Shown: positions 7,375 through 56,680, numbered from the stretch's first letter. The stretch is 57,725 bases of DNA from Parcubacteria group bacterium Greene0416_36 (GCA_007375725.1 VMEV01000005.1:1-57725), one strand, 5' to 3'. The notes: generated by a model not told the origin, from the sequence alone. Program-made: numbers and translations.

Positions 7375-7956
7375 ATGAAATACACCCTACCCCCGCTTCC
7401 TTATTCCTACGACGCGCTCGAGCCGCATATCGATGCGCGCACCATGGAAATTCACTATACCAAGCATCATCAGACGTATGTGGATAAGCTCAATGCGGTC
7501 CTTGAAAAACATCCGGCACTCGCTGAAGAGAAACTCGAAGATTTGATGAAGAAATGGAATGAACTCACGATTCCAGAGGCCGATAAAATGGCTATCCGCA
7601 ATCATGGCGGAGGCCACTTGAATCATTCATTTTTTTGGAATCTGATGGACCCGAAAAAGGAGATTGATTTAAAATTATCTAAAGAAATCCAGGCTTCGTT
7701 CAGCTCGGTCGATGAGTTTAAAAAACTCTTCAGCGATAAGGCCGCCGCGTTATTCGGTTCCGGTTGGTGTCATTTGGTGCGCGATGCATCTGGCAAATTG
7801 ATGATTTATTCCTTGCCCAATCAAGATTCCCCCCTCATGTCCGGCCATACTCCAGTGATCAGTCTGGATGTCTGGGAACATGCCTATTATCTCAAATATC
7901 AAAACAAGCGTGCGGACTATATTGAGGCTTGGTGGAAGGTGGTGAAGATTATTTAA
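7375..7956 (+). CDS. Fe/Mn-family superoxide dismutase
   Basis: N-terminal YTLPPLPYSYDALEPHID, HHQTYV, and DVWEHAYYLKYQN near the C-terminus. Confidence 0.9.
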   Translation: MKYTLPPLPYSYDALEPHIDARTMEIHYTKHHQTYVDKLNAVLEKHPALAEEKLEDLMKKWNELTIPEADKMAIRNHGGGHLNHSFFWNLMDPKKEIDLKLSKEIQASFSSVDEFKKLFSDKAAALFGSGWCHLVRDASGKLMIYSLPNQDSPLMSGHTPVISLDVWEHAYYLKYQNKRADYIEAWWKVVKII

Positions 7957-8046
7957 TAAATCCCTCTCCAACCCTCCCTTTGACAAGGGAGGGGGTTTGC
8001 AGCCCCTTCCCCCTTGTCAAAGGGGGACCGAGGGGGATTTGTTGTT
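7955..8046. repeat. nested palindromic element (NPE) copy a, F orientation
   Basis: AATAAATCCCTCTCC...CCCTCCCTTTGACAAGGGAGGG...CCCCCTTGTCAAAGGGGG...GGGATTTGTTG. It overlaps the SOD stop codon. Confidence 0.9.
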
Positions 8047-8071
8047 TTGATTTCGAAAATACTTACAAAGT

Positions 8072-8635
8072 ATGTTTTTACAGATCCAATCCCTCGACTA
8101 TCGCATCGTCGAATACTTCGCCCTCCATCGAAGTGATTTTTTGACTTCGTTTTTCATGTTTTTGGCCGTCTGGGGAGGAGAAATCGTCAGCACCTTCTTA
8201 ACCATTTTGATTCTCGGGTTTCTCTGGAAACGGAGGGAGATCAAGACGGCGATTGTGGTTTTTGGGACCTTGGCCAGCGGCGCGACGAGTGTGTGGGTTA
8301 TTAAATTTCTGGTGGGGAGAAGTCGTCCAGATGAGTCATTCCGATACTATGTCGAAACTGGTTTTTCGTTTCCCTCCGGGCATGCCACTTTCGCGGTGTG
8401 TTTGTATCTCTCGTGCATTTATATTCTGGACCGATATTCCGTTTCTTGGAAATGGCGGCTCCTCTTCGATATCGTGATGATCTCCGTGGTCCTGGCCATG
8501 GGGCTTTCGCGCGTGTATTTGGGCGTTCATTATCCCACGGATGTGCTAGGCGGTTTTGCCTTGGGATTTTTGTCTTTTCTCTTTTTCTGGGCATTGGGAC
8601 GCACCTCGCTTTTGGATCGTTGGGACAAGAAATAA
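8072..8635 (+). CDS. PAP2-family phosphatase
   Basis: The tripartite motif is present: KFLVGRSRP, PSGH, SRVYLGVHYPTD. Confidence 0.8.
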   Translation: MFLQIQSLDYRIVEYFALHRSDFLTSFFMFLAVWGGEIVSTFLTILILGFLWKRREIKTAIVVFGTLASGATSVWVIKFLVGRSRPDESFRYYVETGFSFPSGHATFAVCLYLSCIYILDRYSVSWKWRLLFDIVMISVVLAMGLSRVYLGVHYPTDVLGGFALGFLSFLFFWALGRTSLLDRWDKK

Positions 8636-8644
8636 TCTTCTTTT

Positions 8645-9727
8645 ATGCCACGCATTCTCTTTGTCTCTAGGCCCGACTGTTTTTCGTTTCCGGCTGGGGA
8701 TACGGTCCAGATGAAGCATACGGCAAAATATTTGGAGCCTTTAGGATGGAAGGTGGATTTTTGGAATGGGAATATTGCGATGCTTAAAAATTATGAGATA
8801 ATACATGTTTTCAACTCTCGTCCTATCCATTTTTTTGTTTATTTGACCGAGCTTTTGGCGCGACTGCGGAAAAAACTGGTGATTTCTCCGATTATTATTG
8901 ATCTTGATGAATACAATCGGCGGGGGCGATACGGACTGGATTGTTTTCTCTTTCGTTTGCCTTTCTGGAATCATTGGGGCGAATGGGCGAAGTCTGCGTA
9001 TTTGTCCGCGCGCGGAGGGTATTCTTTGCCGGGTTTTGGTCGAGGGGATTACCGTTCGGGGGTGCGGACTCTTTTGGATGGTGCGGATGCGATCGTGTGT
9101 TTATCGGAGCTGGAGCGAGAATGGATTGCAAAAAACGTGCGGGATTATGCAAATGCGGCGATTATTCCTAATGGCGTGGAGCCTTTTTTTTATTCGGAAA
9201 ATAAAATCGCTCGGGATTGCTTTTTGTGTGTGGGAAAAATCGAACCGCTCAAAAATCAGCTCCGATTGCTCGAGGCTTATCGTCTCTTGGAAACCGATAT
9301 TCCGCTTTATTTCATTGGATCATCATCGCCCAAACACCCTGCCTTTGTCCGCGAATTTTTTCGCCAATTAAATCGAACCTCGGGTGCCATTTACATTCCC
9401 TCGATGCCTCATGCTGAATTAGCCTCTTTTTATCATCGCGCGAAAGTCCACATTCAGCCCAGCTGGTTTGAAAACGCGCCTTTGGTTCATATGGAAGCCT
9501 TGTCAGCCGGGGCCGCATCCGTGCTCACTGATCGGGGATTTGGAAAGAGTTTATTTCCCGAGTATACGGTTCTTTGTTCTCCTCGTTCGCCGGTCTCTAT
9601 TGCCGAAGCCATTGTTTCGGCTGAGACAAAAGAGATCCCCCATGGATTTTCCAAGAAAATGGTAGACGAGTATTCATGGGGTGCAACGGCGCGTAAATTG
9701 GCTTCTGTGTATGAGTCACTCAGTTAA
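8645..9727 (+). CDS. glycosyltransferase, GT4/GT1-like
   Basis: The C-terminal domain has the ENAPLVHMEALSAGA E-x7-E type motif. Confidence 0.7.
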   Translation: MPRILFVSRPDCFSFPAGDTVQMKHTAKYLEPLGWKVDFWNGNIAMLKNYEIIHVFNSRPIHFFVYLTELLARLRKKLVISPIIIDLDEYNRRGRYGLDCFLFRLPFWNHWGEWAKSAYLSARGGYSLPGFGRGDYRSGVRTLLDGADAIVCLSELEREWIAKNVRDYANAAIIPNGVEPFFYSENKIARDCFLCVGKIEPLKNQLRLLEAYRLLETDIPLYFIGSSSPKHPAFVREFFRQLNRTSGAIYIPSMPHAELASFYHRAKVHIQPSWFENAPLVHMEALSAGAASVLTDRGFGKSLFPEYTVLCSPRSPVSIAEAIVSAETKEIPHGFSKKMVDEYSWGATARKLASVYESLS

Positions 9728-10505
9728 ATTATCGATTATTATTTGCGCCTTGGATTCGAGAGATCATCTGGTTCGCTGTTTTGAATCTCTGTCCCTCCAA
9801 TACCTTCCGCGGTCGTGGGAACTGATTCTCGTGGAGAATGGCTCGTCCGACGGGACGGCGGGCTGGGTGGCCGCGGAGTATCCGCAGTTCCGTGTGATTG
9901 CTAATACTGCGAATAAAGGGGTCTCGATTGCCCGCAATCAGGCATTGGCCGAGGCGAGGGGAGAGTTTGTTTTATTCCTGGACGCGGATACTTATTTTAC
10001 GGAATCCCACACCATCAAGCATTTGATCTCGGTCTTGGATTCTGATCCCACCATTGCTCTCTTGGCCCCGAAACTTTTGTATCCCGATGGCCGGTATCAG
10101 TGTAATGTCCGCCGATTTCCAACCTTGTCGACCATGGCGGTGCGGGCCTTGGGCTTGGATTTGTGGGCGAAGAAAAGGCGTTTTTTTAGGGATTTTTTGT
10201 ATGAAGATATTATGATTGAAAATAAGGAGCTTCTGGATGTCGATTGGGCCTTGGCCGCTTGCCAATTGATTCGTTCCTCAGTTTTCAATCAAATCGGGCT
10301 TCTCGATCCGAAATATTTTTATGGTTATGAAGATATTGATTTTTGTTATCGATTGAAGCGTGGGGGAGCGCGAGTGGTTTTTGACCCCCGCGTGTCTTTG
10401 GTGCATATTTATCAGCGGCGAAGTACCCAATCATGTTTTTTTGCCTACCATCATGGTCGCAGTATTTTGCGATTTTTGGTTAAAAGATATCTATGCCTTA
10501 TTTGA
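9711..10505 (+). CDS. glycosyltransferase family 2
   Basis: LSIIICALD...NGSSDGT...LFLDAD motifs. The ATG at 9711 overlaps the upstream gene end. Confidence 0.75.
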   Translation: MSHSVKLSIIICALDSRDHLVRCFESLSLQYLPRSWELILVENGSSDGTAGWVAAEYPQFRVIANTANKGVSIARNQALAEARGEFVLFLDADTYFTESHTIKHLISVLDSDPTIALLAPKLLYPDGRYQCNVRRFPTLSTMAVRALGLDLWAKKRRFFRDFLYEDIMIENKELLDVDWALAACQLIRSSVFNQIGLLDPKYFYGYEDIDFCYRLKRGGARVVFDPRVSLVHIYQRRSTQSCFFAYHHGRSILRFLVKRYLCLI

Positions 10506-12361
10506 TCGCCTCTATTTTTTTTATTTTATTGCTCGTGCCATCGGAATGGGGGCATTTTATTTTGGGGGCGAGCGCGGCTTTGGTTTATTTATTTCTATTC
10601 TCGAAAGGGAAGATTCAAATGATCCGGAGTGATTGGATTTTATGGGTACTCTGGGGATATTTTTTGTCCGGAGTTTTTTTTCTTGTCCCATCTTTCGAAC
10701 GGGGAATAGCGGCCCTAGTGGATTTTACGTCCTGCCTGTTTTTGTTTTTTTCGGTTCGGAGCATGGATTTGTCTCTTGAAAAGTGGGCAAAGCCTCTGTT
10801 CGTCGTGTCGGGGATTAGTGCGCTCTGGGGACTCGTGGGACTTGGGCTCAGCGATCACTGGGGCTACCTCCGGACCTTTTCTTTCTGGGGCTCCCATGCC
10901 CACTGGGCGTCTTTTTTGATTTTTATTATTCCGATCGCGATGTTTTGGGTGATGAGGGGAGGGCGTCGGTGGGGGATTTTATTTCTGGCGATTTTATTCG
11001 CCAATTATTATTTCACCTTTTCCAGAAGTTCTTTCTTGGCTTTGGGTTTATGTATGGGGGTTTTGCTACTGATGAGAAAGGGCGATAAGCAACAAATCCC
11101 CCTTAATCCCCCCTTGACAGGGGGGAGATTGCTCCCTCCCCTGTCAAGGGGAGGGTTGGGGAGGGGTTGGTTGTTGGCTGTTTTTCTAATCCTCTCCCTC
11201 AGCCTTTACAAAATACACGATGCCCAAAAATCAGGTGTGCGCTTGTCTTTTTTATCACTCCAGCCCATTGTTGTCTCCATAGATAAATCAATTCCTGAAC
11301 TTGCTTCTGGGATCGACTTTTTTTTCGAACCAATACCTCCTCGAAATGCTGTGTCTTTTCGTCTTTCATACTGGAAACACGCGAGCGAAATTTTTCGGGA
11401 TCATTGGTTTTGGGGCATCGGAATCGGGGCCTTCGCAGATCAGTATCGCCTGTATTATCAGGATTTGCGCGATTTTTCGGGCGACCCGCATTCGTGGCCG
11501 CTGTCCTTGGCTTTGGCGGGCGGGGTGGCGGGGGGCGTGATTTTATTCATCTGGATTATTTCGGTGGTTCGGACAAGATTTTGGGAGGGGTGGGGCGACT
11601 CTCAGAAAATATTGGCTCTGTCTTTGGGTTTATTACTCGTTTCCAATCTCTGGGACCGAGGATTGATTTTTCTGCCGCATTTATTGATGATTTTCGTGTC
11701 TTTGGGGATGCTTTTGGGGGATGCGGGTCGTCCTGGTAGGGACACGTTCGGGCGTAGGGGCACGTTGCAACGTGCCCCTACGGGGCCGGTGGTAGGGATA
11801 TCCATAATTTTATTATTCGTTTCGTCTAGCTTTTTCCTCTCCTCTCTCTTTTCCAATCCCCGTCTTGCTTATTATTTCTATCGCCCTCGATCGGAATATG
11901 CTTATGCGGAGGCCCAGAAGCATGTGGATGGGGAAGTCCGTGCGGATTATTTTGTCTGGATGTCCCGCGCTTTATTTTGGGATGCCCCCAACTATATTTA
12001 TCGGACTCAATTAGCCGTCAATTTGTGGAATACCGGCCGTCACTCCGAGGCTCTCTCCGAAATCGAGCGCACGATTGCTTCCTCCCCCCGTGGCATTCCC
12101 AATTTGTACTTGTATTATTTTCAATTATTGAAGAATCGCGGGGAGTATGAAAAAATAGTGCGAGTCGGAGAAACTGTGATTCTGGATTATCCCAGAGATA
12201 TTCTGGTCTCCGAGGATTATTTTCTCTTCGACGGCGGCATTGAAAAACGGAAATCCGTGGCCGATATTTACGGGTGGATGGCCCGAGCGGCAGAGACTCT
12301 GGGAGACTTCGGAAAAGCGCAATTTTTCGAGGAGAGAAGCCGATTTATTTTGGGATTATGA
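10493..12361 (+). CDS. O-antigen ligase (Wzy_C)-like membrane protein with TPR-like C-terminus, carrying two in-frame repeat insertions
   Basis: Multi-TM protein with a FSRSSFLALGL-type motif. It contains NPE copy b and a GTAG palindrome in frame. Confidence 0.6.
   Translation: MPYLIASIFFILLLVPSEWGHFILGASAALVYLFLFSKGKIQMIRSDWILWVLWGYFLSGVFFLVPSFERGIAALVDFTSCLFLFFSVRSMDLSLEKWAKPLFVVSGISALWGLVGLGLSDHWGYLRTFSFWGSHAHWASFLIFIIPIAMFWVMRGGRRWGILFLAILFANYYFTFSRSSFLALGLCMGVLLLMRKGDKQQIPLNPPLTGGRLLPPLSRGGLGRGWLLAVFLILSLSLYKIHDAQKSGVRLSFLSLQPIVVSIDKSIPELASGIDFFFEPIPPRNAVSFRLSYWKHASEIFRDHWFWGIGIGAFADQYRLYYQDLRDFSGDPHSWPLSLALAGGVAGGVILFIWIISVVRTRFWEGWGDSQKILALSLGLLLVSNLWDRGLIFLPHLLMIFVSLGMLLGDAGRPGRDTFGRRGTLQRAPTGPVVGISIILLFVSSSFFLSSLFSNPRLAYYFYRPRSEYAYAEAQKHVDGEVRADYFVWMSRALFWDAPNYIYRTQLAVNLWNTGRHSEALSEIERTIASSPRGIPNLYLYYFQLLKNRGEYEKIVRVGETVILDYPRDILVSEDYFLFDGGIEKRKSVADIYGWMARAAETLGDFGKAQFFEERSRFILGL
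11089..11176. repeat. NPE copy b, R orientation, inside a CDS
   Basis: GCAACAAATCCCCCTTAATCCCCCCTTGACAGGGGGG...CCCTCCCCTGTCAAGGGGAGGG...GTTGGTTGTTG. It is read as QQIPLNPPLTGGRLLPPLSRGGLGRGWLL. Confidence 0.85.
11736..11781. repeat. GTAG-headed palindrome (REP-like) plus partial copy, inside a CDS
   Basis: GTAGGGACACGTTCGGGC is followed by the perfect 28-nt palindrome GTAGGGGCACGTTGCAACGTGCCCCTAC (11754-11781). Confidence 0.85.
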
Positions 12362-14039: not shown

Positions 14040-14355
14040 AAAAATACTCAAGCCCGATTTGGAATTCCAGTCTCTTTTTCGAGAGAGACTGGCTAGTTCC
14101 GGTGATTTATATCTGGAAATTCGCGCCTCTCCTTCTTCTTCCAAAACCGAACTCAGGGAGGTTTTATCTAGTGGAACCTGGAAAATCGCTCTGGTCGCTC
14201 GGCCGGAGCGTGGAAAGGCCAATGTCGAATTGGTTCTTTTTTTATCCCGATTTTTTGACGTACCGAAATCAAATGTGGTTCTGGTTCGAGGAGTGGCCTC
14301 TCGCCAGAAGTGTGTGCATGTGTGGAAAAAAATCCCTCCCCAGCCCTCCCTCTGA
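14029..14355 (+). CDS. DUF167 (YggU-like) protein
   Basis: The ARPERGKANVELVLFLSRFFDVPKSNVVLVRGVASRQK pattern matches this family. The last residues and the stop lie inside NPE copy c. Confidence 0.6.
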   Translation: MGNKKILKPDLEFQSLFRERLASSGDLYLEIRASPSSSKTELREVLSSGTWKIALVARPERGKANVELVLFLSRFFDVPKSNVVLVRGVASRQKCVHVWKKIPPQPSL

Positions 14356-14412
14356 GAGGGGAGGGGGCACTAACTTCCCCCTTGTCAAAGGGGGACCGAG
14401 GGGGATTTGTTG
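14326..14412. repeat. NPE copy c, F orientation
   Basis: The variant left hairpin is CCCTCCCTCTGAGAGGGGAGGG. It contains the DUF167 stop codon. Confidence 0.9.
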
Positions 14413-19975: not shown

Positions 19976-20111
19976 GCAACAAATCCCTCCCCAACCCTCC
20001 CTTTGACAAGGGAGGGAGCAACAACACCCTCCTTCCCTCAGTCTTCGCACCTCTAAGGGGTGGGCGTAGTAGCTTCCCCCTTGTCAAAGGGGGATTGAGG
20101 GGGATTTGTTG
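19976..20111. repeat. NPE copy d, F orientation, with ~45-nt extra central insert
   Basis: Starts directly after the tgt stop codon. The centre contains CAACAACACCCTCCTTCCCTCAGTCTTCGCACCTCTAAGGGGTGGGCGTAGTAGC. Confidence 0.9.
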
Positions 20112-20152: not shown

Positions 20153-21466
20153 ATGTACTCCACCGTCCCCGTCGTTTCCGTCACTCAATTCAACGAATAT
20201 ACCAATGAAGTATTGGCGAATCTTAAGTTTGGCGTGCGGGGGGAGATTATTGGGTATAAAGTGTCGCAGGGGAAGTGGGTGACCTTTGATTTGAAAGACG
20301 CCACAAGTAAAATCAGCTGTTTTTCGACCGTGTATAAACAAAATGTGGCGCTTGAAGATGGGATGGAGGTGATTTGTTATGGGTATCCGAAGATTTATGT
20401 GCCGTACGGGAGATTTTCATTTACGGTCGAGGCCGTGGAACCGGTGGGCGAGGGTGCGCTCAAAAAAGCATTTGAGCTGACTAAGTCCCGCTTGGAATCG
20501 GAAGGACTCTTTGATCCCAAGTACAAAAAGCCGCTTCCTCGTTTTCCGGATCGGATCGGTATTGTCTCGTCTCCCGAAGCGGCGGCGTATACGGATATTC
20601 TGCGGATTCTCAATAATCGCTGGGGAGGACTCGAGATATTTCTCCGTCCCGTGCTGGTTCAGGGGGTGAATGCTCCGGGGGAGATTGTCGAGGCGATCCA
20701 ATATTTCAATGCTCATTTTCCGGTGGACGTGATTTTGGTGGCGCGTGGGGGCGGATCGCTCGAGGATCTGCAGGCCTTCAATGACGAGCGGGTGTGCCGC
20801 GCGATATTCGCCTCGAAGATCCCGATCATCACGGGAGTGGGGCATGAACGGGACACCACCCTCGTCGATTATGTCGCCGACCGCCGAGCCTCCACCCCGT
20901 CGAATGCCGCGGAGATCGCGGTGCCGGACCGCCGTGATATACTGGATCAATTGCTTTGGTCTCGGCGGACGATGGACTCATCCATGGAAGAGAGGATTCG
21001 AACCCTTGGGACCCAATTATTGCATAGTAAAACGCATTTGGACCGATTTGTGGAGAATATTCAGGTGGGATTTTCGAATCTCCAGGCGAAATTTGTGACA
21101 GCGAGCAATCGTCTTGGGTCGATGATGCAAACCGGCCAAAGTAATATCGCCTTGGCGGAGAAAAATATCCGTGATATTCTTCTTCGCAGAATCGCGTTGT
21201 CTCGTTCTCGACTCGGAGAGCGTCAGGTATTTCTCCAGTCCACTCATCCTTATCGGCTTTTGGAAAAAGGCTATTCGATTTCGTATCAGCGAGACGCCAA
21301 GACGATTATTCGTTCGGCCAAGTCCATTAAATGGGGGGATAAGATTGTGTCGAGGTGGAGAGATGGGGAGGCGGTGTCGATTGTGGAGAAGACAACAAAT
21401 CCCTCCCCAGCCCTCCCTTTGACAAGGGAGGGTGTAGCAGCTTCCCCCTTGTCAAAGGGGGATTGA
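20153..21466 (+). CDS. xseA: exodeoxyribonuclease VII large subunit
   Basis: OB-fold N-terminus (GEIIGYKVSQGKWVTFDLKD), VARGGGSLEDL and GHERD motifs. The C-terminal tail and stop lie inside NPE copy e. Confidence 0.9.
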   Translation: MYSTVPVVSVTQFNEYTNEVLANLKFGVRGEIIGYKVSQGKWVTFDLKDATSKISCFSTVYKQNVALEDGMEVICYGYPKIYVPYGRFSFTVEAVEPVGEGALKKAFELTKSRLESEGLFDPKYKKPLPRFPDRIGIVSSPEAAAYTDILRILNNRWGGLEIFLRPVLVQGVNAPGEIVEAIQYFNAHFPVDVILVARGGGSLEDLQAFNDERVCRAIFASKIPIITGVGHERDTTLVDYVADRRASTPSNAAEIAVPDRRDILDQLLWSRRTMDSSMEERIRTLGTQLLHSKTHLDRFVENIQVGFSNLQAKFVTASNRLGSMMQTGQSNIALAEKNIRDILLRRIALSRSRLGERQVFLQSTHPYRLLEKGYSISYQRDAKTIIRSAKSIKWGDKIVSRWRDGEAVSIVEKTTNPSPALPLTREGVAASPLSKGD

Positions 21467-21480
21467 GGGGGATTTGTTGC
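21392..21480. repeat. NPE copy e, F orientation
   Basis: Full element. It supplies the last ~25 codons and the TGA stop of xseA. Confidence 0.9.
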
Positions 21481-26552: not shown

Positions 26553-26643
26553 GCAACAAATCCCACCCCAACCCTCCCTTTGACAAGGGAGGGGGTGTAG
26601 CTACCTCCCCCTTGTCAAAGGGGGATTGAGGGGGATTTGTTGC
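26553..26643. repeat. NPE copy f, F orientation
   Basis: Full element in the divergent dnaB / 26677 intergenic region. Confidence 0.9.
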
Positions 26644-27757: not shown

Positions 27758-27844
27758 AACAACAAATCCCTCCCCAACCCTCCTTTTGACAAGGGAGGGC
27801 GCTGTTTCCCCCTTGTTAAAGGGGGATTAAGGGGGATTTGTTGC
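27758..27844. repeat. NPE copy g, F orientation
   Basis: Full element starting 4 nt after the preceding stop codon. Confidence 0.9.
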
Positions 27845-27852
27845 TAAAACAT

Positions 27853-29400
27853 ATGTCTCTAATTATCCGCGAAAATATCCCCCTTGCTCCCCTGACGACT
27901 TTCCGAGTCGGCGGGCCGGCGCGTTATTTTGCGGAGGTGGGAAGCAGAGAGGATTTGAAAGAAGCTTCGGCATGGGCAATCGAAAAACAATGCCCGGTTT
28001 TTATTTTTGGGGGGGGGAGCAATGTGCTGGTCAGTGACGAGGGATTTCTTGGCTTAGTGATTCGTCCGAATTTTTTGGGGAAGGAAATTGTCAGAGAGGA
28101 CGGCGAATCCGTGCGGATTCGTTTGGGCTCCGGAGAAGTCTGGGACGAGATGGTCGCGTGGACAGTGGAGAATAATTGGTGGGGAATTGAAAACCTCTCT
28201 CATATTCCCGGACGTGTTGGGGGCCTCGCGGTCCAGAATGTGGGGGCGTATGGGCAAGAGGCTTCTCAGGTGGTCGATTCCGTCGAAGCCTGGGATATTC
28301 AGGATCAAAAAGTAAGAATATTTCAAAAAGAAGAATGCCTATTTCGTTATCGGCAGAGTATTTTTAATGTCGAAGAGAAGGGAACATATGTGATTATTTC
28401 GATTGTTTTAAAATTGAGCAAAATTGCCAGTCCTAAGCTCGATTATCCGGATCTTAAAAAATGCCTGGAGTCCAATGTGAGTCCTTCGATTGGGGATATT
28501 CGCCGCTGTATTATTTCCATTCGCGACGCCAAATTTCCGTTTCCCCGAGAGGCGCAAAACGGTAATGCTGGGTCTTTTTTCAAGAATTTGGTTCTCACCC
28601 AAGATCTATATTCGATTCTTGAATCTTCTGTCGCGAAAAATATTCCGTTAGCATTACCCAAACTTCAAGAAATCAAAAAAAAATTTCCCGACCAAACCGG
28701 AATCAAAATCCCGACCGCCTTCCTCATCGATATTTGCGGCCTCAAGGGCGCATCAGTCGGCGGAGCGAAAATCAACGAAAAACAGCCTCTCGTGATTCTC
28801 AATTATACCGGTAAAGCCATGGCGAAGGATATTTTGGCGCTGGCAGATCAGGTGATAGCCACGTTGCATGAGAAGACGGGGATGAGAGTGGAGAGGGAGG
28901 TGGAGTGGGTGGGGGCAACAAGCAACCGGGCAACCAATCCCCCTCGGTCCCCCTTTGACAAGGGGGAAGAGGATGTTGTTACCCCCTCCCTTGTCAAAGG
29001 GAGGATTGGGGTGGGATTTGTTGCTAGAGGTTTGAATCTCCCCTATAATCAAAAACTAAAAATCTTGGCAAGAGAGAACCGAAAAAATTCGACACCCTCT
29101 GAATCAAAAATGTGGAATGATGTATTGCGTCGCCGTCAATGTAAGGGGCATACGTTTTTGAGACAAAAACCCATGGGTCGCTTCATTTTAGATTTTTATT
29201 GTTCAGAATTATTGTTGGGAATTGAAATCGATGGGAATTATCATACTGATCAGGAAATAAAAGAAAATGACGAAGAAAGATCCGAGTTATTAAAAGAATT
29301 TGGGATTCAGGTAATTCGATATACGAATGAAGAGGTGTTGGAAAATATTGAAGGGGTGAGGGAGGATTTGGGCAAGAGGGTGGGGGAGAGGGAACAATAA
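27853..29400 (+). CDS. murB: UDP-N-acetylenolpyruvoylglucosamine reductase (MurB) fused in frame, through a repeat copy, to a DUF559 endonuclease-like domain
   Basis: The MurB part has LAPLTTFRVGGPARYF and FIFGGGSNVLV. The MurB part ends near 28914, NPE copy h is read through, and the DUF559-like part follows. Confidence 0.75.
   Translation: MSLIIRENIPLAPLTTFRVGGPARYFAEVGSREDLKEASAWAIEKQCPVFIFGGGSNVLVSDEGFLGLVIRPNFLGKEIVREDGESVRIRLGSGEVWDEMVAWTVENNWWGIENLSHIPGRVGGLAVQNVGAYGQEASQVVDSVEAWDIQDQKVRIFQKEECLFRYRQSIFNVEEKGTYVIISIVLKLSKIASPKLDYPDLKKCLESNVSPSIGDIRRCIISIRDAKFPFPREAQNGNAGSFFKNLVLTQDLYSILESSVAKNIPLALPKLQEIKKKFPDQTGIKIPTAFLIDICGLKGASVGGAKINEKQPLVILNYTGKAMAKDILALADQVIATLHEKTGMRVEREVEWVGATSNRATNPPRSPFDKGEEDVVTPSLVKGRIGVGFVARGLNLPYNQKLKILARENRKNSTPSESKMWNDVLRRRQCKGHTFLRQKPMGRFILDFYCSELLLGIEIDGNYHTDQEIKENDEERSELLKEFGIQVIRYTNEEVLENIEGVREDLGKRVGEREQ
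28915..29024. repeat. NPE copy h, R orientation, inside a CDS
   Basis: Read as ATSNRATNPPRSPFDKGEEDVVTPSLVKGRIGVGFVA with no stop in this frame. Confidence 0.85.
29032..29400 (+). other. DUF559 (Vsr-like endonuclease) domain segment of the murB ORF
   Basis: LPYNQKLKILARENRKNSTPSESKMWNDVLRRRQCKGHTFLRQKPMGRFILDFYC...IEIDG...IRYTNEEV matches the stand-alone DUF559 layout. A TTG at 29032 could be an independent start. Confidence 0.6.
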
Positions 29401-29490
29401 AACAACAAATCCCCCTCAATCCCCCTTTGACAAGGGGGAGGAAGCTGCGCCCTCCCTTGTCAAAGGGAGGGTTGAGGTGGGATTTGTTGT
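29401..29490. repeat. NPE copy i, R orientation
   Basis: Starts directly after the stop codon at 29398-29400. Confidence 0.9.
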
Positions 29491-30317: not shown

Positions 30318-30411
30318 GCAACAAACCCCTCCCCAACCCTCCCTTTGACAAGGGAGGGGGCAACAACACCCCTTCCCCCTTGTCAAAGGGGGACCGAGGG
30401 GGATTTGTTGC
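30318..30411. repeat. NPE copy j, F orientation
   Basis: Full element. It contains the stop codon and last codons of the MurD-like gene on the minus strand. Confidence 0.9.
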
Positions 30412-34844: not shown

Positions 34845-34918
34845 ACAGCCGCAACAAATCCCTCCCCAACCCTCCCTTTGACAAGGGAGGGGGTAGCAGC
34901 CTCCCCTTATTCGTAATT
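34812..34918. repeat. heptamer-arm hairpin interrupted by NPE copy k
   Basis: Left arm AATTAAGAATGATGAATTACGAATGACGAATTA, then AACAGCC, then the truncated NPE, then the short right arm TTATTCGTAATTTT. Confidence 0.7.
34851..34908. repeat. NPE copy k, F orientation, truncated (left half only)
   Basis: The left TIR, first hairpin and GGTAGCAGCC linker are present. The second hairpin and right TIR are absent. Confidence 0.85.
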
Positions 34919-34920: not shown

Positions 34921-36090
34921 ATGACCATCGGCATTGACGCCCGTTTTTACGGCACGCTCGGCAAAGGCCTGGGCCGCTATACTCAGCGACTGATTGAGTA
35001 TATCGAGCCGCTCGACCGTGAAAATCAGTATGTGATTTTTCTGCGGCGGGAGAATTGGGAGGAATACACTCCTCGGTTTTCGAATTTTCGAAAAGTGTTG
35101 GCGCCTTACTCTTGGTATGGTTTTAGCGAACAGATTTTTTTCCCGTTTTTGATTTGGAAAGAGGGGATAGATCTGATGCATTTCCCCCATTTCAATGTGC
35201 CGATTTTATGTCCAGCGCCTCTGGTTGTGACCATACATGATTTGATTCTTCTGGATTTTCCGACGCCCCGCGCCACTGCGCTCGGTCCGGTTATTTATAA
35301 AATCAAAGAGGCCGTCTATCATATCGTGATCCGAATGGCCATCTGGAGGGCAAAAAGGGTTATTACCATTTCTGAATACACCAAAAAACGCCTCATGGCT
35401 TATTTTCGTCGGTCAGAGAATAAAATCGCCGTAATTTATCAGTCCGGCAGGGTGAATATTTGCCAAGAAGGACCAGGCCGTGCCAGCGGAAAAAATGACT
35501 CTAGCCGTGATATTATTCGTCCTTATTTTTTGTATGTAGGCAATGCTTATCCCCACAAAAATTTGGAGGGACTGCTTCGGGCTTATAAAGTGTTTGTGCA
35601 TAAAAATGGATTCACTCATCAGCTCGTTTTGGTAGGCAAAATGGATTATTTTTACGAAGGCGTGAAAAAGCTGGCGGGGGAATTGGGCCTGCTCGAATCT
35701 CCAGACGGGGTGAGTCCGGTGATTTTTCGAGGACAGGTGTCGGATTGTGAACTCTGTTTTATTTATCGAAGTGCTTTTTGTTATGTCTTTCCTTCTTTTG
35801 TGGAAGGTTTTGGCCTCCCGCCTCTGGAAGCCATGAACTATGGCATTCCCGTTTTATCTTCCAACCGATCGTGTCTTCCTGAAATTCTGGGAGATGGGGC
35901 TCTTTTTTTCGATCCCGGGAATGAAGCGGAATTTGTAGAGTCCCTGATTCGCATTTCCCAAGATGATCTCTTGCGAACGGATTTAGTCGAGAAGGGTTAC
36001 CGTACGACCCAAAAATACTCCTGGGAGAAGTTTGCGAGGGAGACGCTGGGGGTTTATCAGAAAGAAATCCCACCCCAACCCTCCCTTTGA
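34921..36090 (+). CDS. glycosyltransferase, GT4/GT1 family
   Basis: FLYVGNAYPHKN and FPSFVEGFGLPPLEAMNYG motifs. The stop codon lies inside NPE copy l. Confidence 0.75.
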   Translation: MTIGIDARFYGTLGKGLGRYTQRLIEYIEPLDRENQYVIFLRRENWEEYTPRFSNFRKVLAPYSWYGFSEQIFFPFLIWKEGIDLMHFPHFNVPILCPAPLVVTIHDLILLDFPTPRATALGPVIYKIKEAVYHIVIRMAIWRAKRVITISEYTKKRLMAYFRRSENKIAVIYQSGRVNICQEGPGRASGKNDSSRDIIRPYFLYVGNAYPHKNLEGLLRAYKVFVHKNGFTHQLVLVGKMDYFYEGVKKLAGELGLLESPDGVSPVIFRGQVSDCELCFIYRSAFCYVFPSFVEGFGLPPLEAMNYGIPVLSSNRSCLPEILGDGALFFDPGNEAEFVESLIRISQDDLLRTDLVEKGYRTTQKYSWEKFARETLGVYQKEIPPQPSL

Positions 36091-36153
36091 CAAGGGAGGG
36101 CGCAATAGCACCCCTTCCCCCTTGTCAAAGGGGGACCGAGGGGGATTTGTTGC
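36061..36153. repeat. NPE copy l, F orientation
   Basis: Full element. The TGA of its TTTGACAAG supplies the stop of the preceding gene. Confidence 0.9.
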
Positions 36154-41700: not shown

Positions 41701-43481
41701 ACAAGCTCTTCCGCGGTACGACTCCTGTTGGTTCCACTTCTCAGATCACCAATGTGGTCGGAACAAACCATGGTGAAGTGCGATTTACGGGTCTTAATTC
41801 ACAGGTTGCCAAGGGTACTGTAGGTCAGTTCCAAGTAGCAGCTGATGTGAACTTTGCCGGTAATATCCTCTTGGGTATTGGCCAGAACATTGTCACAGTC
41901 ATTCCGACTTACCTCGAATATGACGGTGCGGTCTCTGGTGCTAATACTCGAGATTCCGGAGGCATAGCGGTTGCTTCTTTCCCTGTTGCTGCTGCTCCTG
42001 CGGGTGCTGATACGATTGAAGTCAACGATGGCGAGAACTTCGAGAACGGAGATCTCGTCCGAATCGACTTCAACAACGATGGCGACTTTACTGATAATCA
42101 TGTGGTTGCAGGTGTGAACGAAAATCTTCAGTTTACGGTTTGTACTAAGGCATTGATCGCTGCTGGTCGAACGACCATTCAACTTGATCCTGATGCTTGT
42201 GGCGCCGGCGCTGCTATCGTAGATATCTTGGCTGCTGGCGAATTTGTGGTGGGTGGTGCAATCACTCGATTCGTTACGGTTATCTCCAATGTCAAGACCA
42301 CAGAAGAAGCTCGCTTGGTTGGCTCAGCTCATGCCTCCTTCCAAGACTTGTCTCAGACTGTGACTTCTCAGGTGGGTACCTTTGTCTTGGCTTCCCAGGG
42401 CAATCGGCCGATCATCATCGACAAGCTGAAGTTTGAAGTTTCCGGTTCCTTTGACGTAGTCAACGGTTTCGGTGCTCATAACTATCAGCTCTGGAGAGCT
42501 TCCAACACCGATGGTGCTAAGACTGTTCAGATCCCAACCGGACCTGGCGGAATTTTCACCCAGGCTGCTCAATTGGTATACGTTCCCTCTGGAACGAATA
42601 TTGCCAACGGTGCCGCTCCTTTGGTGAATAACGGTGGGGGTATTGCGGTCGGCGCGACTTTGATCGCTTTCGATGCGGGTACTGCTAATCGATCTTTCTC
42701 TGTCGGTGACCGTATCACTTTCCGAGCTGCAGCTGCTAACTGTGGCGCTCCGAACCAGGCTGGTATCAGCCCGAACGGAACGATCGGTTATCGTGTGACT
42801 CAAGTCACAACTGCTGATCTCGGTATTACGGGTTCTATCGTGATCACTCCAGGTGTCCGCGGAACAGCTTTGGCTGATAACGTGGTTATCTGCGCCTTCA
42901 CCAATGATGCGGCTGATGCCTTAGTCAACGTTGCTAACGGTGCTACAGGTGTTGGGTCCGTCATCATTGGAACGAATGCTGCACCTACGGTTGTTGTGGG
43001 AGATATTGTCTCCTTCGTACAATTGGCAGGTCCTCTACTTGTTCGCAATGTTGGACAGGGTCATCGTGTCCTTGCAGTAGGTAACGTCGCTCCTTGTGCC
43101 GCTGCCAACTGTTTCGTGATCGTGCCTCCTCTTCCAGCTGCCTTGGCCAACAACGATTTGATCCGACGATCCAGCAATGTACTCCAGGATACTGATCTTC
43201 CTGAGTCCGGAGCTGTCGTCGCCTTCAAGCTGCCTGCTGGCGAACAGATTGGTGCTAACTCTAGCTCGACCTATGCTGTTGTAGCTGACACTTCAACTAT
43301 GAAGGCTACAAACAACAATGGAACAGCCACTTTGACTCTCAGAGTGCCTGGAAACCGAGGTATTGCTGACAATACCAACGGTTTCAACTGGACTTATACT
43401 CCAGCCAACGGTGGACTTAACCGCCCAATCATCGATATCTCCAACTCTTATCCCACCAACTCTCGAACCGCTATCTACTAA
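38703..43481 (+). CDS. giant secreted surface protein (S-layer-like candidate), 1592 aa
   Basis: Signal peptide, then a globular N-terminal domain (GDLIKASGASVYAYGPDAKRYVFPNEKTF...), then about 1400 aa rich in A/G/T/V/N. NNT/NNC codon bias is strong and a strong terminator follows. Confidence 0.7.
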   Translation: MSNQSFAKKLLSVGLTVSTTFWSLGLALLPVGASAATLVSGDLIKASGASVYAYGPDAKRYVFPNEKTFKTWFKDFGTVKTITDAELANIPIGGNVVYRGGTRLVKITTDPKVYAIGLGGKLYHVATEGVAMELYGAAWAQRVDDVPDAFFTNYIVGEAMTTAVPPKGSVVSDGTDMYFINGTGEKQKLETGALDANWFRAEYTLNLNAAKLAALPTGTPILGKVANIVDPAQKELGAGAGTTVTGSVTVSMSNLTPVAGSAIPGGAFYAKVLCLDANNGTNQEVRVTGITVNRIGILADANVAGVLVTDKDGVLHGNNVTFGQSTASSAFASEPIILALGAKTTFCVNVNIGAAVQTGTVGVQLQTANALVVQNAAGQVIVPVGAFPFVSPLQSIVNGAGAIGQLQLSAGAVASGNNVNPTEVDQGVKDLDIAKFRFQEITGNESVELMTLNLHNNGSASDRDVDTVRLIDQNNNIVATGEMRNNEISFVVKNLAASAVPATLIGPNGGYLITEGQLRDFTVRLNTTSTSNSANRTLNFAIQEANDVFARGIETQVGVTPIQLGGVNLFNAFPIGDLFNVVRFRQGNVNLSRATSSLAGKIARGMTNVALASFDVNVFGEDLEFQTFDYAIRRDNNNGLLTNALALTGTIKIQNKLGNNIFSITANDPTNYGTACINGVPAAAITVVNNVLQCGAGSNANGVGVAHNLNSFYTVKAGEVGKITFVGDISQNANANIADSYAVVLTGLRARRVSSNNFLNQVALAIAGNTLTVDASTLTVSANSSFAPQNLVLGGGLQQIASFNLQAGSAEDQRVNAIQIRICRRPAGQGVGLTTANNCAVDTVLANLQAVSNITLMVGGQPIAPSFNIATVAGFTASTNLTVPANTPRIVDVFAVVSTAFPVNDRVGVGLAVTSAVGSGSQTTVAIAEQFNNAVLAQNAGVLNVNPQNDGVVNLAELLHSGLTGAPLLLFQIAENNNSEAINIRNLYFQVRNGGNLNNYKLFRGTTPVGSTSQITNVVGTNHGEVRFTGLNSQVAKGTVGQFQVAADVNFAGNILLGIGQNIVTVIPTYLEYDGAVSGANTRDSGGIAVASFPVAAAPAGADTIEVNDGENFENGDLVRIDFNNDGDFTDNHVVAGVNENLQFTVCTKALIAAGRTTIQLDPDACGAGAAIVDILAAGEFVVGGAITRFVTVISNVKTTEEARLVGSAHASFQDLSQTVTSQVGTFVLASQGNRPIIIDKLKFEVSGSFDVVNGFGAHNYQLWRASNTDGAKTVQIPTGPGGIFTQAAQLVYVPSGTNIANGAAPLVNNGGGIAVGATLIAFDAGTANRSFSVGDRITFRAAAANCGAPNQAGISPNGTIGYRVTQVTTADLGITGSIVITPGVRGTALADNVVICAFTNDAADALVNVANGATGVGSVIIGTNAAPTVVVGDIVSFVQLAGPLLVRNVGQGHRVLAVGNVAPCAAANCFVIVPPLPAALANNDLIRRSSNVLQDTDLPESGAVVAFKLPAGEQIGANSSSTYAVVADTSTMKATNNNGTATLTLRVPGNRGIADNTNGFNWTYTPANGGLNRPIIDISNSYPTNSRTAIY

Positions 43482-43606: not shown

Positions 43607-43693
43607 ACAACAAATCCCTCCCCAACCCTCCCTTTGACAAGGGAGGGCGTAGGCCTCCCCCTTGTCAAAGGGGGACTGAGGGGGATTTGTTGC
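43607..43693. repeat. NPE copy m, F orientation
   Basis: Full element about 40 nt after the terminator. Confidence 0.9.
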
Positions 43694-49754: not shown

Positions 49755-49757
49755 AGT

Positions 49758-52064: not shown

Positions 52065-52073
52065 TTATCCACA
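52065..52073. promoter_or_regulatory. perfect DnaA-box 9-mer (TTATCCACA)
   Basis: An exact consensus inside a ~490-bp AT-rich stretch with no supported gene. Confidence 0.2.
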
Positions 52074-52177
52074 GCTTTTTGGTGGCATTATTGTTCTCTT
52101 CTATTCTGAAGAAGAAGCATATTGTGTTTTATGCGTTTTTAGTGCAAAATCCTTTTGAGATAGTTTTTTGAAAAGAG

Positions 52178-52274
52178 TTGTCATGCTGAGCCTGCCGTGC
52201 CAACCCGAAGCTGTTTTAGCCTAGGGTGGTCGAAGCATTTCTAAGGAAAGCCTTCGACAGGCTCAGGCTGACAA
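52178..52274. repeat. TGTCAT...ATGACA compound palindrome, CCTGAGCCTGTCGAAGG type (copy 2)
   Basis: TTGTCATGCTGAGCCTGCCG...GCCTTCGACAGGCTCAGGCTGACAA. It ends 17 nt before the lepA ATG. Confidence 0.8.
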
Positions 52275-52291
52275 GGCCCCTCTAAAATTAT

Positions 52292-54085: not shown

Positions 54086-54088
54086 ATT

Positions 54089-54178
54089 AACAACAAATCC
54101 CCCTCAATCCCCCTTTGACAAGGGGGAGGCTGTTACCCCCTCCCTTGTCAAAGGGAGGGTTGGGGAGGGATTTGTTGT
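54089..54178. repeat. NPE copy n, R orientation
   Basis: Full element starting 3 nt after the lepA stop codon. Confidence 0.9.
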
Positions 54179-54349
54179 TTAGATATGCATCGTCATCAAA
54201 TCACAAAAATCCTCTGGAAGGTCATTTGTATTGTCATGATTTTTTCCATGATTCTATTCACTATATTGCCTTTATTGGGCAATTGAACCTGAAATCAGAT
54301 TTTTTTGAAGAAATCTGATTTTTTGGCTGGCTGATTTTGTTAAATTTAT

Positions 54350-56092
54350 ATGAAGAAAATAGCGCAGTGGGAGATCAAGACGCCCGTGGAGGTCGCCAAT
54401 CGGGATCAGTTTCCGGAGGTGCATCCGATCGTTTTGCAGTTGCTGTGGGATCGGGGATTGCGGACCGAGGCGCAAATCGAAGAGTTTTTGACTCCGGATT
54501 ATTTGGAAGACGTCCATGATCCTTTTTTATTTTCGAGAATGGTTGAAGCGGTAGATTTACTCTCGGGAAAAATTAAAGCGAAAGAATTAGTCGCGATTCA
54601 CGGGGACTATGATGCGGATGGCGTCACGGCCAGCGTGATTTTGGCTTCCACGATTCGACTTCTCGGCGGAGAGGCTCTGGTTTATTTGCCTCATCGGGAA
54701 ACCGAAGGCTATGGTCTGTCTAAAAAGGCTATTGATTATCTGGCTCGAAAAGGCGCCTTCTTACTCATCACGGCTGACTGCGGGATCAGCAATCGGGAAG
54801 AAGTCGAGTATGCTAAATCATCGGGGTTTACCGTGATTGTCACCGATCATCATGAGGTCCCAGCCGTACCTCCGGAGTGCATTTTGATTCATCCCCGCGC
54901 TCCTGGAGAAGAATATCCTTTTAAATATCTGACAGGCGGAGGAGTGGCATTCAAATTCATGCAGGCCATTCTTCGTACGAAGAGCGAGGAATTTGGAGTC
55001 AAAAAAGAAGAAGCTTTTGCTTTTGAAAAATGGCTTCTGGATTTGGTGGCCATCTCGACGGTCGCGGACATGATGCCCCTCCTCGGTGAGAATCGGACCT
55101 TGGTCAAATATGGCCTGGTGGTACTGGCCAAATCCCGTCGCGTGGGCATGAAGAGTCTGCTCGAACGTGCGGGACTGCTTGGGGGAGAGAAGCCCGCTAA
55201 ACTGGATGCCGATACCATTGGCTTTCAAATTGCGCCTCGCATCAATGCCGCCGGGCGCATGGATCATGCCAATATCGCGTTCGAGCTGCTCATGGAAGAG
55301 TCGCCGGTGCGGGCGGGTGAACTCGCCGAAGCTATCAACAAGAATAACGCCGATCGTAAAGACGTGGTGACCCGCATGATGGAGTCTGCGTATCGTCAGC
55401 TGGGAGAGGTTCCGCTGGACGCGCGCCGAGTGCTTTCGGTTTATGACAGCTCGTGGTCCTTGGGAGTCGCGGGGCTTGTGGCCGGGAAACTTTGCCAGGA
55501 ATTTTACCTGCCCTCGGTCGTGGCCGCGGATCTGGACGGGAAAATCGCGGGTTCGGTGCGTTCGATTCCTGGATTCAATTTTGTCGATATGCTTTGGGAG
55601 ATGAAGGGTCTGTTTGAGAAATTTGGAGGTCATGCCGCGGCTTGCGGATTCACGCTGAAGAACCGAGCGGATTGGCCGATATTCCAGAAAAAAGCGAGTG
55701 AATTTTTCTTTCTCAAATCGCGCGACTCGGATGTGATCCCGAAGCTCATGATCGACCAGGAAATTCCGCTCCGAGAAATCAATTGGGATCTCATGGGTCA
55801 GCTCGAGCAGTGTGAGCCTTTTGGAAAAGATAATCCTCGTCCGGTTTTTATCTCGCGAGGGGTGACGGTCAAATCGCTCGACCCTATTGGTAATCTAGGG
55901 AAACATTTGCGTCTCTCCGTATTTGACGGCCAAAAAACAACCCGTAAATGCATCGGGTTCTGTTTTGGCCACTGGTGCCAAACCCTCAAATCCGGGGATA
56001 AAATTGATATGGTCTATGAGGTGGGCGTCAATGAATGGAATGGGAATAGGGAATTGCAATTGAGGATTGTGGATCTTAAATTAGGCAGTTAG
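54350..56092 (+). CDS. recJ: single-stranded-DNA-specific exonuclease RecJ
   Basis: DHH-family motifs: HGDYDADGV, ITADCG, VTDHH. Confidence 0.9.
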   Translation: MKKIAQWEIKTPVEVANRDQFPEVHPIVLQLLWDRGLRTEAQIEEFLTPDYLEDVHDPFLFSRMVEAVDLLSGKIKAKELVAIHGDYDADGVTASVILASTIRLLGGEALVYLPHRETEGYGLSKKAIDYLARKGAFLLITADCGISNREEVEYAKSSGFTVIVTDHHEVPAVPPECILIHPRAPGEEYPFKYLTGGGVAFKFMQAILRTKSEEFGVKKEEAFAFEKWLLDLVAISTVADMMPLLGENRTLVKYGLVVLAKSRRVGMKSLLERAGLLGGEKPAKLDADTIGFQIAPRINAAGRMDHANIAFELLMEESPVRAGELAEAINKNNADRKDVVTRMMESAYRQLGEVPLDARRVLSVYDSSWSLGVAGLVAGKLCQEFYLPSVVAADLDGKIAGSVRSIPGFNFVDMLWEMKGLFEKFGGHAAACGFTLKNRADWPIFQKKASEFFFLKSRDSDVIPKLMIDQEIPLREINWDLMGQLEQCEPFGKDNPRPVFISRGVTVKSLDPIGNLGKHLRLSVFDGQKTTRKCIGFCFGHWCQTLKSGDKIDMVYEVGVNEWNGNRELQLRIVDLKLGS

Positions 56093-56166
56093 GCTTTAGG
56101 CATTAGCTTTTTAGGGAACAGCCAAAATACTGTTTTATTTCTAATAAGCTAAAACCTAATGCCTAA
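56081..56166. repeat. heptamer-arm hairpin (TTAGGCA/TTAGCTT-type arms)
   Basis: The left arm overlaps the recJ stop. GAACAGCC lies in the loop. The right arm is CTAATAAGCTAAAACCTAATGCCTAA. Confidence 0.75.
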
Positions 56167-56181
56167 TTCCTTGTTGCTTAT

Positions 56182-56592
56182 ATGCATATCATCATCTATT
56201 CCGACGGCGGATCGCGCGGAAACCCGGGGCCGGCTGGCATTGGCGCAGTTTTGTGGAATGCCGATAAAACCAAGAAATTGGCCCAGATTTCCAAATATAT
56301 TGGCGAGACCACCAATAATCAGGCTGAGTATCGCGCCTTGGATGCAGCCCTCGACCGCGCCAAAGAACTGGGTGCCAAAACCATCGAATGCTATCTCGAC
56401 AGCCAGCTGGTCGTCCGGCAACTAGAGGGCAAGTACAAGGTCAAAGAACCCGGCATCGCCGCGATTTTCCCCGCGATCAAATTCAAACTCCATTCTTTTG
56501 GTACTCATTCCTGCCATGATATCCGCCGGGAACTGAACAAAGACGCGGACGCTCTGGTGAATGAGGCGCTCGATAAAAAATTAAAAAATTAG
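56182..56592 (+). CDS. rnhA: ribonuclease HI-family protein
   Basis: IYSDGGSRGNPGPAGIG, NNQAEYRAL, and DSQLV...NKDADALVN carrying the DEDD residues. Confidence 0.85.
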   Translation: MHIIIYSDGGSRGNPGPAGIGAVLWNADKTKKLAQISKYIGETTNNQAEYRALDAALDRAKELGAKTIECYLDSQLVVRQLEGKYKVKEPGIAAIFPAIKFKLHSFGTHSCHDIRRELNKDADALVNEALDKKLKN

Positions 56593-56680
56593 CAACCAAT
56601 CCCTCCCCAGCCCTCCCTTTGACAAGGGAGGGGGTAGCAGCCTCCCCCTTGTCAAAGGGGGACCGAGGGGGATTTGTTGT
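56592..56680. repeat. NPE copy o, F orientation
   Basis: It starts at the last base of the rnhA stop codon and is followed by a heptamer arm TCATTCGTCATTCTTCATT. Confidence 0.9.

Follow-up and report, generated by a model that had tools for sequence, protein, structure and literature searches.

A dispersed palindromic repeat in a Parcubacteria genome segment and its physical link with DUF559 nuclease genes in many phyla

The 57,725-nt DNA segment analysed here (the whole stretch, hereafter the window) belongs to the chromosome of Parcubacteria group bacterium Greene0416_36, a member of the Patescibacteria (candidate phyla radiation, CPR), and carries fifteen dispersed copies of a palindromic repeat of about 90 bp. 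Its genes include those for MetRS, SOD, TGT, XseA, MurB, a MurD-like protein, DnaB, LepA, RecJ, GlmS and FtsEX, together with many glycosyltransferase genes and eight dispersed tRNA genes. The sole DUF559 gene of the window lies between two copies of the repeat, and genes of this family are physically linked to repeats of the same design across phyla.

Repeat copies and the DUF559 gene of the window

The original prediction described the copies as a nested palindromic family with terminal inverted repeats (TIRs), similar to repetitive extragenic palindromes (REPs) or miniature inverted-repeat transposable elements (MITEs). This description is well supported by the count of the end motif and by a profile search. 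The end 12-mer GCAACAAATCCC, allowing up to one mismatch, occurs 25 times in the window against 0.58 expected, and none of 100 shuffles held as many. An nhmmer profile built from the 15 copies recovered all of them within ~3 nt of the predicted coordinates, found no further copies in the window, and returned the same split of 11 forward and four reverse copies. Fourteen copies are full length, and one (34851-34908) is truncated inside the second hairpin. The copies measure 87-94 bp, share a mean pairwise identity of 89.5% (range 80-97%), and end in TIRs of at least 12 nt (GCAACAAATCCC/GGGATTTGTTGC). At a density of about one per 4 kb they total 1381 nt, or 2.4% of the window. The copy placed at 28915 is a real element as well, with the correction that its core begins at 28930; positions 28915-28929 are an additional 15-nt partial end.

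The original prediction could not place the element in a named family, and none fits: Rfam returned only eight tRNAs for the window at gathering score. At relaxed E-values the copies matched only generic microRNA-precursor hairpin models and weak noise. A CRISPR or other tandem array was rejected because the copies are dispersed. Integron attC sites and gene cassettes were likewise rejected, as the GCAAC.../...GTTGC ends do not fit the RYYYAAC/GTTRRRY cores, the window holds no integrase, and the neighbours are housekeeping genes.

Each unit is composed, in order, of a C-rich box (AAATCCCYCCCC), hairpin A, a short variable linker, hairpin B, an AYYGA spacer and a G-rich box (GGGGGATTT), with the ends extended in this lineage by GCAAC and GTTGC. 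The two arms are inverted repeats of one another, with one hairpin in each. In single copies, whether as RNA or DNA, the minimum-free-energy fold pairs one arm with the other in a single long hairpin (-58 to -72 kcal/mol for RNA; z-scores -5.8 to -11.8). An outer stem enclosing two inner stem-loops, as originally proposed, is thus not the thermodynamic optimum. The two inner stem-loops, however, are supported by compensatory changes. Across 68 distinct family members, collected from metagenomes with a pattern in which no more than the loops and two stem pairs are fixed, pairing in the two local hairpins reaches 94.6%, and C-G to T-A swaps occur. Double-sided changes in these hairpins number 97 versus 27 ± 4.8 in shuffles (0 of 500 shuffles reach 97), and the covariation score is 0.303 versus 0.121. 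In contrast, the arm-to-arm hairpin shows no covariation signal in the same members (0.066 versus 0.071; 419 of 500 shuffles as high). The terminal boxes recur in 38 of 48 elements found with a pattern that does not require them, versus 1.4% of control windows.

The linker had been said often to contain GTAG. This motif occurs in only six of the 15 linkers, is absent from relatives in other genomes and is not conserved in the wider family; the hint that it gave of a REP-associated tyrosine transposase (RAYT) and REP system therefore fails. Two further observations concern the linker. A third end-like motif (GCAACAACACCC, GCAATAGCACCC) is present in the linkers of the copies at 30318-30411, 36061-36153, 28930-29024 and 19976-20111, and its sequence looks as though the unit enclosed a mini-element with a single hairpin. 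The copy at 19976-20111 also has a 47-bp linker insert.

DUF559 proteins are widespread and a structure has been solved (PDB 3HRL), and we know of no established role for the family. The DUF559 (PF04480) gene of the window extends from about 29010 to 29400 on the plus strand, with the domain at 29041-29397, between copy 8 (28915..29024, minus strand) and copy 9 (29401..29490, minus strand), which share one orientation. Copy 9 begins 0 nt past the DUF559 stop codon. At the other end, a candidate GTG start at about 29010 lies within copy 8, six bases past a GGGAGG Shine-Dalgarno-like motif, so that the right hairpin and G-box of copy 8 contain both. The protein matches PF04480 with 89.9 bits against a cut-off of 20.6, the NCBIfam DUF559 model with E = 4e-15 (under its equivalog cut-off), and the Neisseria gonorrhoeae DUF559 protein of 3HRL with E = 7e-14. 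Residues D51, E62, D64 and H68 are invariant in 29 homologues. An AlphaFold2 model (pLDDT, the model's own confidence score, 87) matches 3HRL (E = 4e-7), then the catalytic domain of I-Bth0305I (3r3p, probability 1.0), then Vsr (1vsr). In a published survey, Vsr, DUF559 and I-Bth0305I fall into the same PD-(D/E)XK clade (PMC3424549). From its sequence and modelled structure, the window protein is predicted to be a Vsr-like PD-(D/E)XK nuclease.

Linkage of DUF559 genes to the repeat across phyla

The association of DUF559 with the repeat extends well beyond this genome. Peptides of the kind that the element encodes (SPSLVKGRAGEGL or SPSPDKGRAGEGF) are present in 85 of the 120 best DUF559 homologues versus 1 of 119 TGT homologues; the window element in the corresponding frame reads TPSLVKGRVGEGF. 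These peptides occur in N-terminal extensions (76 of 118) and C-terminal extensions (28 of 118), and none lies inside the DUF559 domain. Named sources among the 120 homologues are Pelobacter, Desulfuromonadales, Methylococcaceae, Nitrospirae, Thermodesulfovibrio and Pacebacteria.

The same arrangement is visible in DNA. The order element-DUF559-element is found in Pelobacter propionicus, on a 0.97-Mb contig and in Thermodesulfovibrio, and a half-element lies upstream of DUF559 in Pacebacteria and on two more contigs. Over these six loci of 15-20 kb, 17 C-rich perfect hairpins fall in the 5.5 kb around DUF559 versus eight in the other 112 kb, a roughly 43-fold enrichment. DUF559 is bracketed likewise on a high-GC contig (L023) and, with a different hairpin loop, on a contig from a viral collection (L083). 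More distant DUF559 genes (33-45% identity) from cultured bacteria sit within such repeats in Deinococcus, Azospirillum, Sphingomonas, Sphingobium, Picosynechococcus, Sinorhizobium and Neisseria gonorrhoeae, and the Sphingomonas repeat shares the spacer ACCGA with the window element. The Sinorhizobium repeat beside DUF559 belongs to a dispersed two-hairpin palindromic family of the Rhizobiaceae, with 1238 places in 179 replicons.

Two Deinococcus species carry the DUF559 gene inside a single element, between inverted box-plus-hairpin ends of ~50 bp. In D. psychrotolerans this TIR-DUF559-TIR unit begins directly past the paaD stop codon, whereas Deinococcus sp. QL22 lacks the unit and has paaD next to paaZ. 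At the level of gene order, the two species thus form an insertion/empty-site pair for the DUF559-carrying unit. The literature that we searched yielded no description of a link between DUF559 and repeats, and the association appears to be an undescribed lead.

Several of these loci have additional features. In Thermodesulfovibrio (L098, 10376-10600), the G-box, the ribosome-binding region and the opening DUF559 codons appear a second time past the downstream element; this sequence suggests a tandem or partially deleted second DUF559 copy. Both there and at L089, a type I restriction-modification operon ends with DUF559. In Pacebacteria (L090, 31% GC), a right half-element (hairpin plus GGGGGTTTG) faces a left half (CAAACCC plus hairpin) across 60 nt at 11985-12109; these gene-less facing halves match the arrangement around DUF559 and may be a deletion remnant. 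The DUF559 gene of N. gonorrhoeae (L112) is located between direct repeats of ~100 bp, each containing CTCTCCC-TGT-GGGAGAG and a AGAGAGAGGG box. By name we take this gene to be the one behind PDB 3HRL (NGO0050). Its PLSDB record, 2.17 Mb long, is labelled a plasmid and appears to be the chromosome.

We also asked where the repeat occurs on its own. Named TGT relatives of the window are Patescibacteria throughout, and the top non-self match is just 59% identical; the databases therefore contain no close relative of this lineage. Sister contigs were reached at the protein level, by searching with a synthetic translation of the element in four frames, which gave three matches, a number limited by the word index. 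On a 20-kb contig matching 'Parcubacteria group bacterium Gr01-1014_18' (L107), 4.5 copies with 88-96% identity lie in 17.5 kb, a density similar to that of the window; a second CPR assembly (L108) has a lower density, with 1.5 copies in 10 kb. The element is absent at the two sampled loci of the nearest TGT relatives (L105 and L106; 11.4 and 15.4 kb). These two loci have a GC content of 33-34%, versus 45-50% over most of the window. Mobility of the 90-bp element in the window genome is thus shown only indirectly, by its absence at the relatives' loci and by the in-frame insertions described below.

The same architecture recurs in 72 metagenome contigs, which range from AT-rich CPR-like contigs to high-GC ones from freshwater and soil, along with a Clostridia-type locus from the gut. 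In this wider form the element consists of a box, an optional small hairpin, CCCCC-TTTGACAA-GGGGG, a linker, CCCCC-TTGTCAAA-GGGGG, an optional hairpin and a box. A 22-mer scan of GTDB representatives gave eight single matches, and a scan of viral contigs for the two-hairpin pattern in both orders gave none. Same-protein matches for P0131 and P0174 represent one locus in many samples and are uninformative on mobility. The gut Clostridia-type element (L011, L013, L016, L019, L022 and ~20 others) is likewise one locus in many human-gut samples; it lies between an 864-aa gene and a gene for a TRAP-transporter binding protein, and has small extra hairpins between box and main hairpin. Tandem arrays of one type of hairpin, with a spacing of 48-49 bp or 159 bp, take the place of single units in the high-GC contigs L023 (2100-2900), L071 and L018.

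Next to 49 distinct solo elements, the 109 neighbouring open reading frames (ORFs) are unrelated housekeeping genes, each Pfam family occurring at most twice. Neither a transposase nor a RAYT is among the 25 families listed for these neighbours, and domain searches of the ~40 window ORFs found no transposase, integrase or RAYT. These results bear on the possibility that the repeat is an ordinary MITE or REP moved by a DDE transposase, or by a Y1 RAYT or IS200-type enzyme, encoded beyond the 58-kb window, with DUF559 next to it by accident. Terminal inverted repeats, small size and high copy number are what such an element would have, the absence of a target-site duplication is in keeping with Y1 enzymes, some linkers contain GTAG, and the window covers a small part of the genome. 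We nevertheless regard this explanation as quite improbable. No transposase or Y1_Tnp domain was found in the window or among the families listed for the solo-element neighbours, and GTAG is conserved neither in the window nor in the wider family. Moreover, the recurrence of DUF559 adjacency across phyla, together with the local enrichment of hairpins, makes that adjacency hard to call incidental.

A different reading accepts the linkage and reverses its cause: DUF559 would be a free-standing homing-type endonuclease that recognises the palindromic element and lands in it, while the repeats multiply by another enzyme or through hairpin-driven errors of replication and repair. The closest characterised structural relative of the window protein is indeed a homing endonuclease (3r3p; PMC3239194). 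DUF559 often stands between two complete elements, as if it had landed between or inside them, and in most genomes sampled the elements are nearly confined to the DUF559 locus. I-Bth0305I and other Vsr-like (EDxHD) homing endonucleases (PMC3239194, PMC2677866) belong to the same fold and catalytic-motif family as DUF559 and offer a precedent for a selfish, site-specific role. Unlike DUF559, which is here a stand-alone domain of 120 aa among chromosomal palindromic repeats, enzymes of the I-Bth0305I type are larger, have extra DNA-binding regions, and reside in introns or inteins of phage genes. Homing into repeats also leaves the solo copies, one per 4 kb, unexplained. No other candidate enzyme is found among the ~40 window ORFs or the families listed for the solo-element neighbours, and the Deinococcus unit, gene plus both inverted ends, is either wholly present or wholly missing. 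On balance we think homing of this kind unlikely.

Placement of the copies relative to genes

Thirteen of the 15 copies lie outside genes or at gene edges, and, as originally proposed, they favour stop codons and gene 3′ ends. For seven copies the start falls between -2 and +6 nt relative to a stop codon. Copy 1 (7955..8046, plus), whose left end is degenerate, overlaps the SOD stop codon by 2 nt; copy 4 (19976..20111, plus) begins 0 nt past the stop codon of TGT; and copy 7 (27758..27844, plus), upstream of murB, begins 4 nt past that of ORF358. Copy 11, the truncated one (34851..34908, plus), begins 6 nt past the stop codon of a GT1 gene and ends 12 nt before the next start codon, and copy 14 (54089..54178, minus) begins 3 nt past that of LepA. 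The first base of copy 15 (56592..56680, plus) completes the TAG stop codon of an RNase H-like gene. The seventh is copy 9, behind DUF559. Under uniform placement in non-coding DNA, seven of 15 copies within 9 nt of a stop codon has P = 5.9e-6. The pattern recurs on the independent contig L107, where each of the four full copies touches or overlaps a stop codon and one of them extends DHFR in frame.

Four further copies overlap gene 3′ ends and contain the stop codon, supplying the last 10-25 codons. Copy 3 (14326..14412, plus) provides the final 10 codons and stop of a DUF167 gene, and copy 12 (36061..36153, plus; left end degenerate) those of a second GT1 gene (GT1b). Copy 5 (21392..21480, plus) codes for the final 25 aa and the stop of XseA, whereas the XseA gene of a relative ends normally and is followed by XseB. 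On the opposite strand, the 3′ end of the minus-strand MurD-like gene is overlapped for 29 nt by copy 10 (30318..30411, plus).

The element consensus is open in four of six reading frames, and two copies are read through in frame. Copy 2 (11089..11176, minus) lies within a Wzy_C ORF for an O-antigen ligase-like protein (10493-12361), where it would be read as aa 199-228. These 30 element-coded residues (KQQIPLNPPLTGGRLLPPLSRGGLGRGWLL) fall between predicted membrane segments, and the closest homologues (~27-29% identity in the alignment) show a gap there. The second case is copy 8. MurB is complete (NCBIfam equivalog, aa 10-362) yet has no stop codon; copy 8 abuts it, and the frame runs on through the copy into DUF559. 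The resulting 520-aa MurB-DUF559 ORF (27838-29400) could be a real fusion, a stop codon lost to the element, or an assembly error.

The remaining two copies are intergenic. Copy 6 (26553..26643, plus) occupies the divergent region between dnaB (minus) and ORF358 (plus). Copy 13 (43607..43693, plus) begins 125 nt downstream of an ORF of 1592 aa (38703-43481) that has no Pfam match, and ends 47 nt before a DivIC-like gene. The plus strand holds most genes, and GC skew is positive nearly all along the window.

Inspection of the flanks of all copies bore out the earlier statement that no target-site duplication is evident: no repeat is consistent among them, and TA is present at both ends of one copy only (27758). 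Since the base outside the element ends is usually A, and TA(A/G) is often 0-4 nt away, the flanks suggest a possible weak preference for AT- or TA-rich targets.

The bias toward stop codons raises the question of whether the copies are primarily host regulatory elements, that is, bidirectional terminators, mRNA 3′ stabilisers or translation stops, kept alike by selection and gene conversion and no longer, or never, mobile. Eleven of 15 copies at or over gene 3′ ends, the recurrence on L107, very stable hairpins and a U-rich tail (AUUUGUUGYU) would all be expected of such elements. Furthermore, a TGT relative has an ordinary, classical terminator hairpin 3′ of TGT where the window carries the element. 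The T-rich tail (ATTTGTTGYT) pairs with the 5′ arm. On the other side, a scan for the terminator consensus flagged no full copy. Copies also occur inside ORFs and in a divergent promoter region, both orientations are represented, native C-termini have been replaced, and one stop codon has been lost. Near-identical motifs are found, moreover, across phyla of differing GC content, which points to horizontal spread and not to independent selection. We therefore consider a primarily regulatory, immobile family very improbable. A promoter role for the TTGACA loops was rejected on inspection, as no -10 box stands at the right spacing, and the consensus scan lists none inside an element.

DUF559 as a possible partner enzyme

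Taken together, we favour, with a probability of roughly 0.55, the interpretation that the 90-bp unit is a non-autonomous REPIN- or MITE-like repeat (REPINs being inverted REP doublets), a local expansion of a cross-phylum superfamily with DUF559 as its partner enzyme. The repeat family, its structure, its placement and its linkage to DUF559 in several phyla are observed directly, as is the Deinococcus insertion/empty-site pair for the DUF559-carrying unit. That DUF559 moves or maintains the repeats, how it would cleave, what the copies do in termination or translation, and whether DUF559 is a mobiliser or homes into repeats are matters that we infer. We propose that the nuclease would recognise the repeated hairpin-plus-box motifs and nick at or near the element, and that host replication or repair would then copy the element to new sites without a target-site duplication, by analogy with REPIN and RAYT or with a homing endonuclease and its site. 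Copies would persist at or beside stop codons, where they do least harm, and there they probably serve as strong 3′ hairpins, either terminators or mRNA stabilisers. The hairpin and G-box upstream of DUF559, which would hold its ribosome-binding site, probably keep its expression low.

Several points weigh against this interpretation. The tie between DUF559 and the repeat is one of genomic linkage, which could be reversed, with DUF559 homing into pre-existing repeats. Vsr-family nucleases nick or cut DNA, and strand transfer is not their known activity. The position of DUF559 varies: in Deinococcus the gene lies within a single element, in the window and at L089 and L098 it is flanked by two full elements, and at L090, L099, L100 and in Azospirillum it only follows a half or full element. 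No single simple transposon model predicts all three arrangements. Among the 72 loci picked for having the element, only one has a DUF559 gene; this is expected because the copies are non-autonomous, and it gives no direct support. No empty/filled site was seen for a 90-bp copy itself, the nearest relatives sharing 59% TGT identity. Finally, the covariation within the palindrome would fit a symmetric double-stranded protein-binding site as well as a folded strand, and the sequences compared are phylogenetically non-independent.

Among known systems, the REP/REPIN repeats and their RAYT (TnpA_REP) enzymes (PMC8266576; bioRxiv 10.1101/2021.07.10.451892) come closest. Both systems have short palindromes arranged as inverted doublets that are dispersed, high-copy and extragenic and lack a target-site duplication, and in both one small nuclease gene is flanked by a lineage-specific repeat family. 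Unlike in REPIN systems, the flanked gene here encodes a DUF559 PD-(D/E)XK nuclease and not a Y1 HUH enzyme (PF01797 was not found in the window), the conserved GTAG is missing, and the Deinococcus gene sits inside the element. Moreover, REPs are species-specific, whereas the hairpin loop and box motifs described here are conserved across phyla. REPIN-RAYT is the closest functional analogy, but the conserved GTAG and the Y1 partner, both of them defining, fail here.

The Correia elements of Neisseria and the pneumococcal RUP are bacterial MITEs of ~100 bp with terminal inverted repeats. Like them, the window element is about 100 bp long, has terminal inverted repeats, lies intergenically near genes and affects adjacent reading frames. 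It differs from them in its internal hairpins and repeated boxes, in lacking a target-site duplication (TA or any other) and in having no DDE transposase as partner. A MITE would be expected to have a longer autonomous counterpart with matching ends that encodes the transposase. The TIR-DUF559-TIR units of two Deinococcus species, with ~50-bp ends built on the box-plus-hairpin design of the repeat, are a possible candidate; DUF559, however, is not a known transposase, and the window gene lies between full elements.

Rickettsia palindromic elements are palindromic repeats of a reduced genome that are tolerated in frame within genes. The in-frame copies predicted here in the Wzy ORF, the MurB-DUF559 read-through, the XseA tail and the DHFR of L107 resemble them in this respect. 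In contrast to the Rickettsia elements, the copies here are mostly at stop codons and have an associated nuclease gene, and no sequence relationship connects the two. As for the Sinorhizobium element beside DUF559, a dispersed two-hairpin palindromic family of Rhizobiaceae replicons, it may belong with the Rhizobium-specific intergenic mosaic elements (RIME) or other orphan mosaic repeats, for which we found no report of an enzyme partner.

A broader proposal, which we put forward tentatively and at somewhat less than even odds, is that DUF559 genes with inverted box-plus-hairpin ends constitute an unrecognised class of minimal selfish element, encoding only a Vsr-like nuclease of ~120 aa, and that the 90-bp repeats are gene-less derivatives of it. 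Orphan palindromic families in rhizobia, Deinococcus, Neisseria, cyanobacteria and gut Clostridia may also be gene-less derivatives of DUF559 elements.

The repeats have practical consequences for genome data. They break assemblies, as in a Logan short-read contig of the same genome (L009) that has element halves at both ends, and they give rise to false ORF extensions and fusions, of which MurB-DUF559 and the long N-termini of DUF559 proteins in databases are examples. Bacteria commonly contain dispersed palindromic repeats, and to our knowledge an enzyme partner is known for few of their families (RAYT for REPs, some insertion sequences for MITEs). If the DUF559 link proves reproducible, it would offer a candidate mechanism for many orphan repeat families and, if true, a testable function for DUF559. 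It would also show that a CPR bacterium with a very small genome can tolerate a repeat that rewrites gene ends and takes up about 2.4% of the window. Were DUF559 elements truly selfish, they would represent a second, RAYT-independent origin of REPIN-type repeats.

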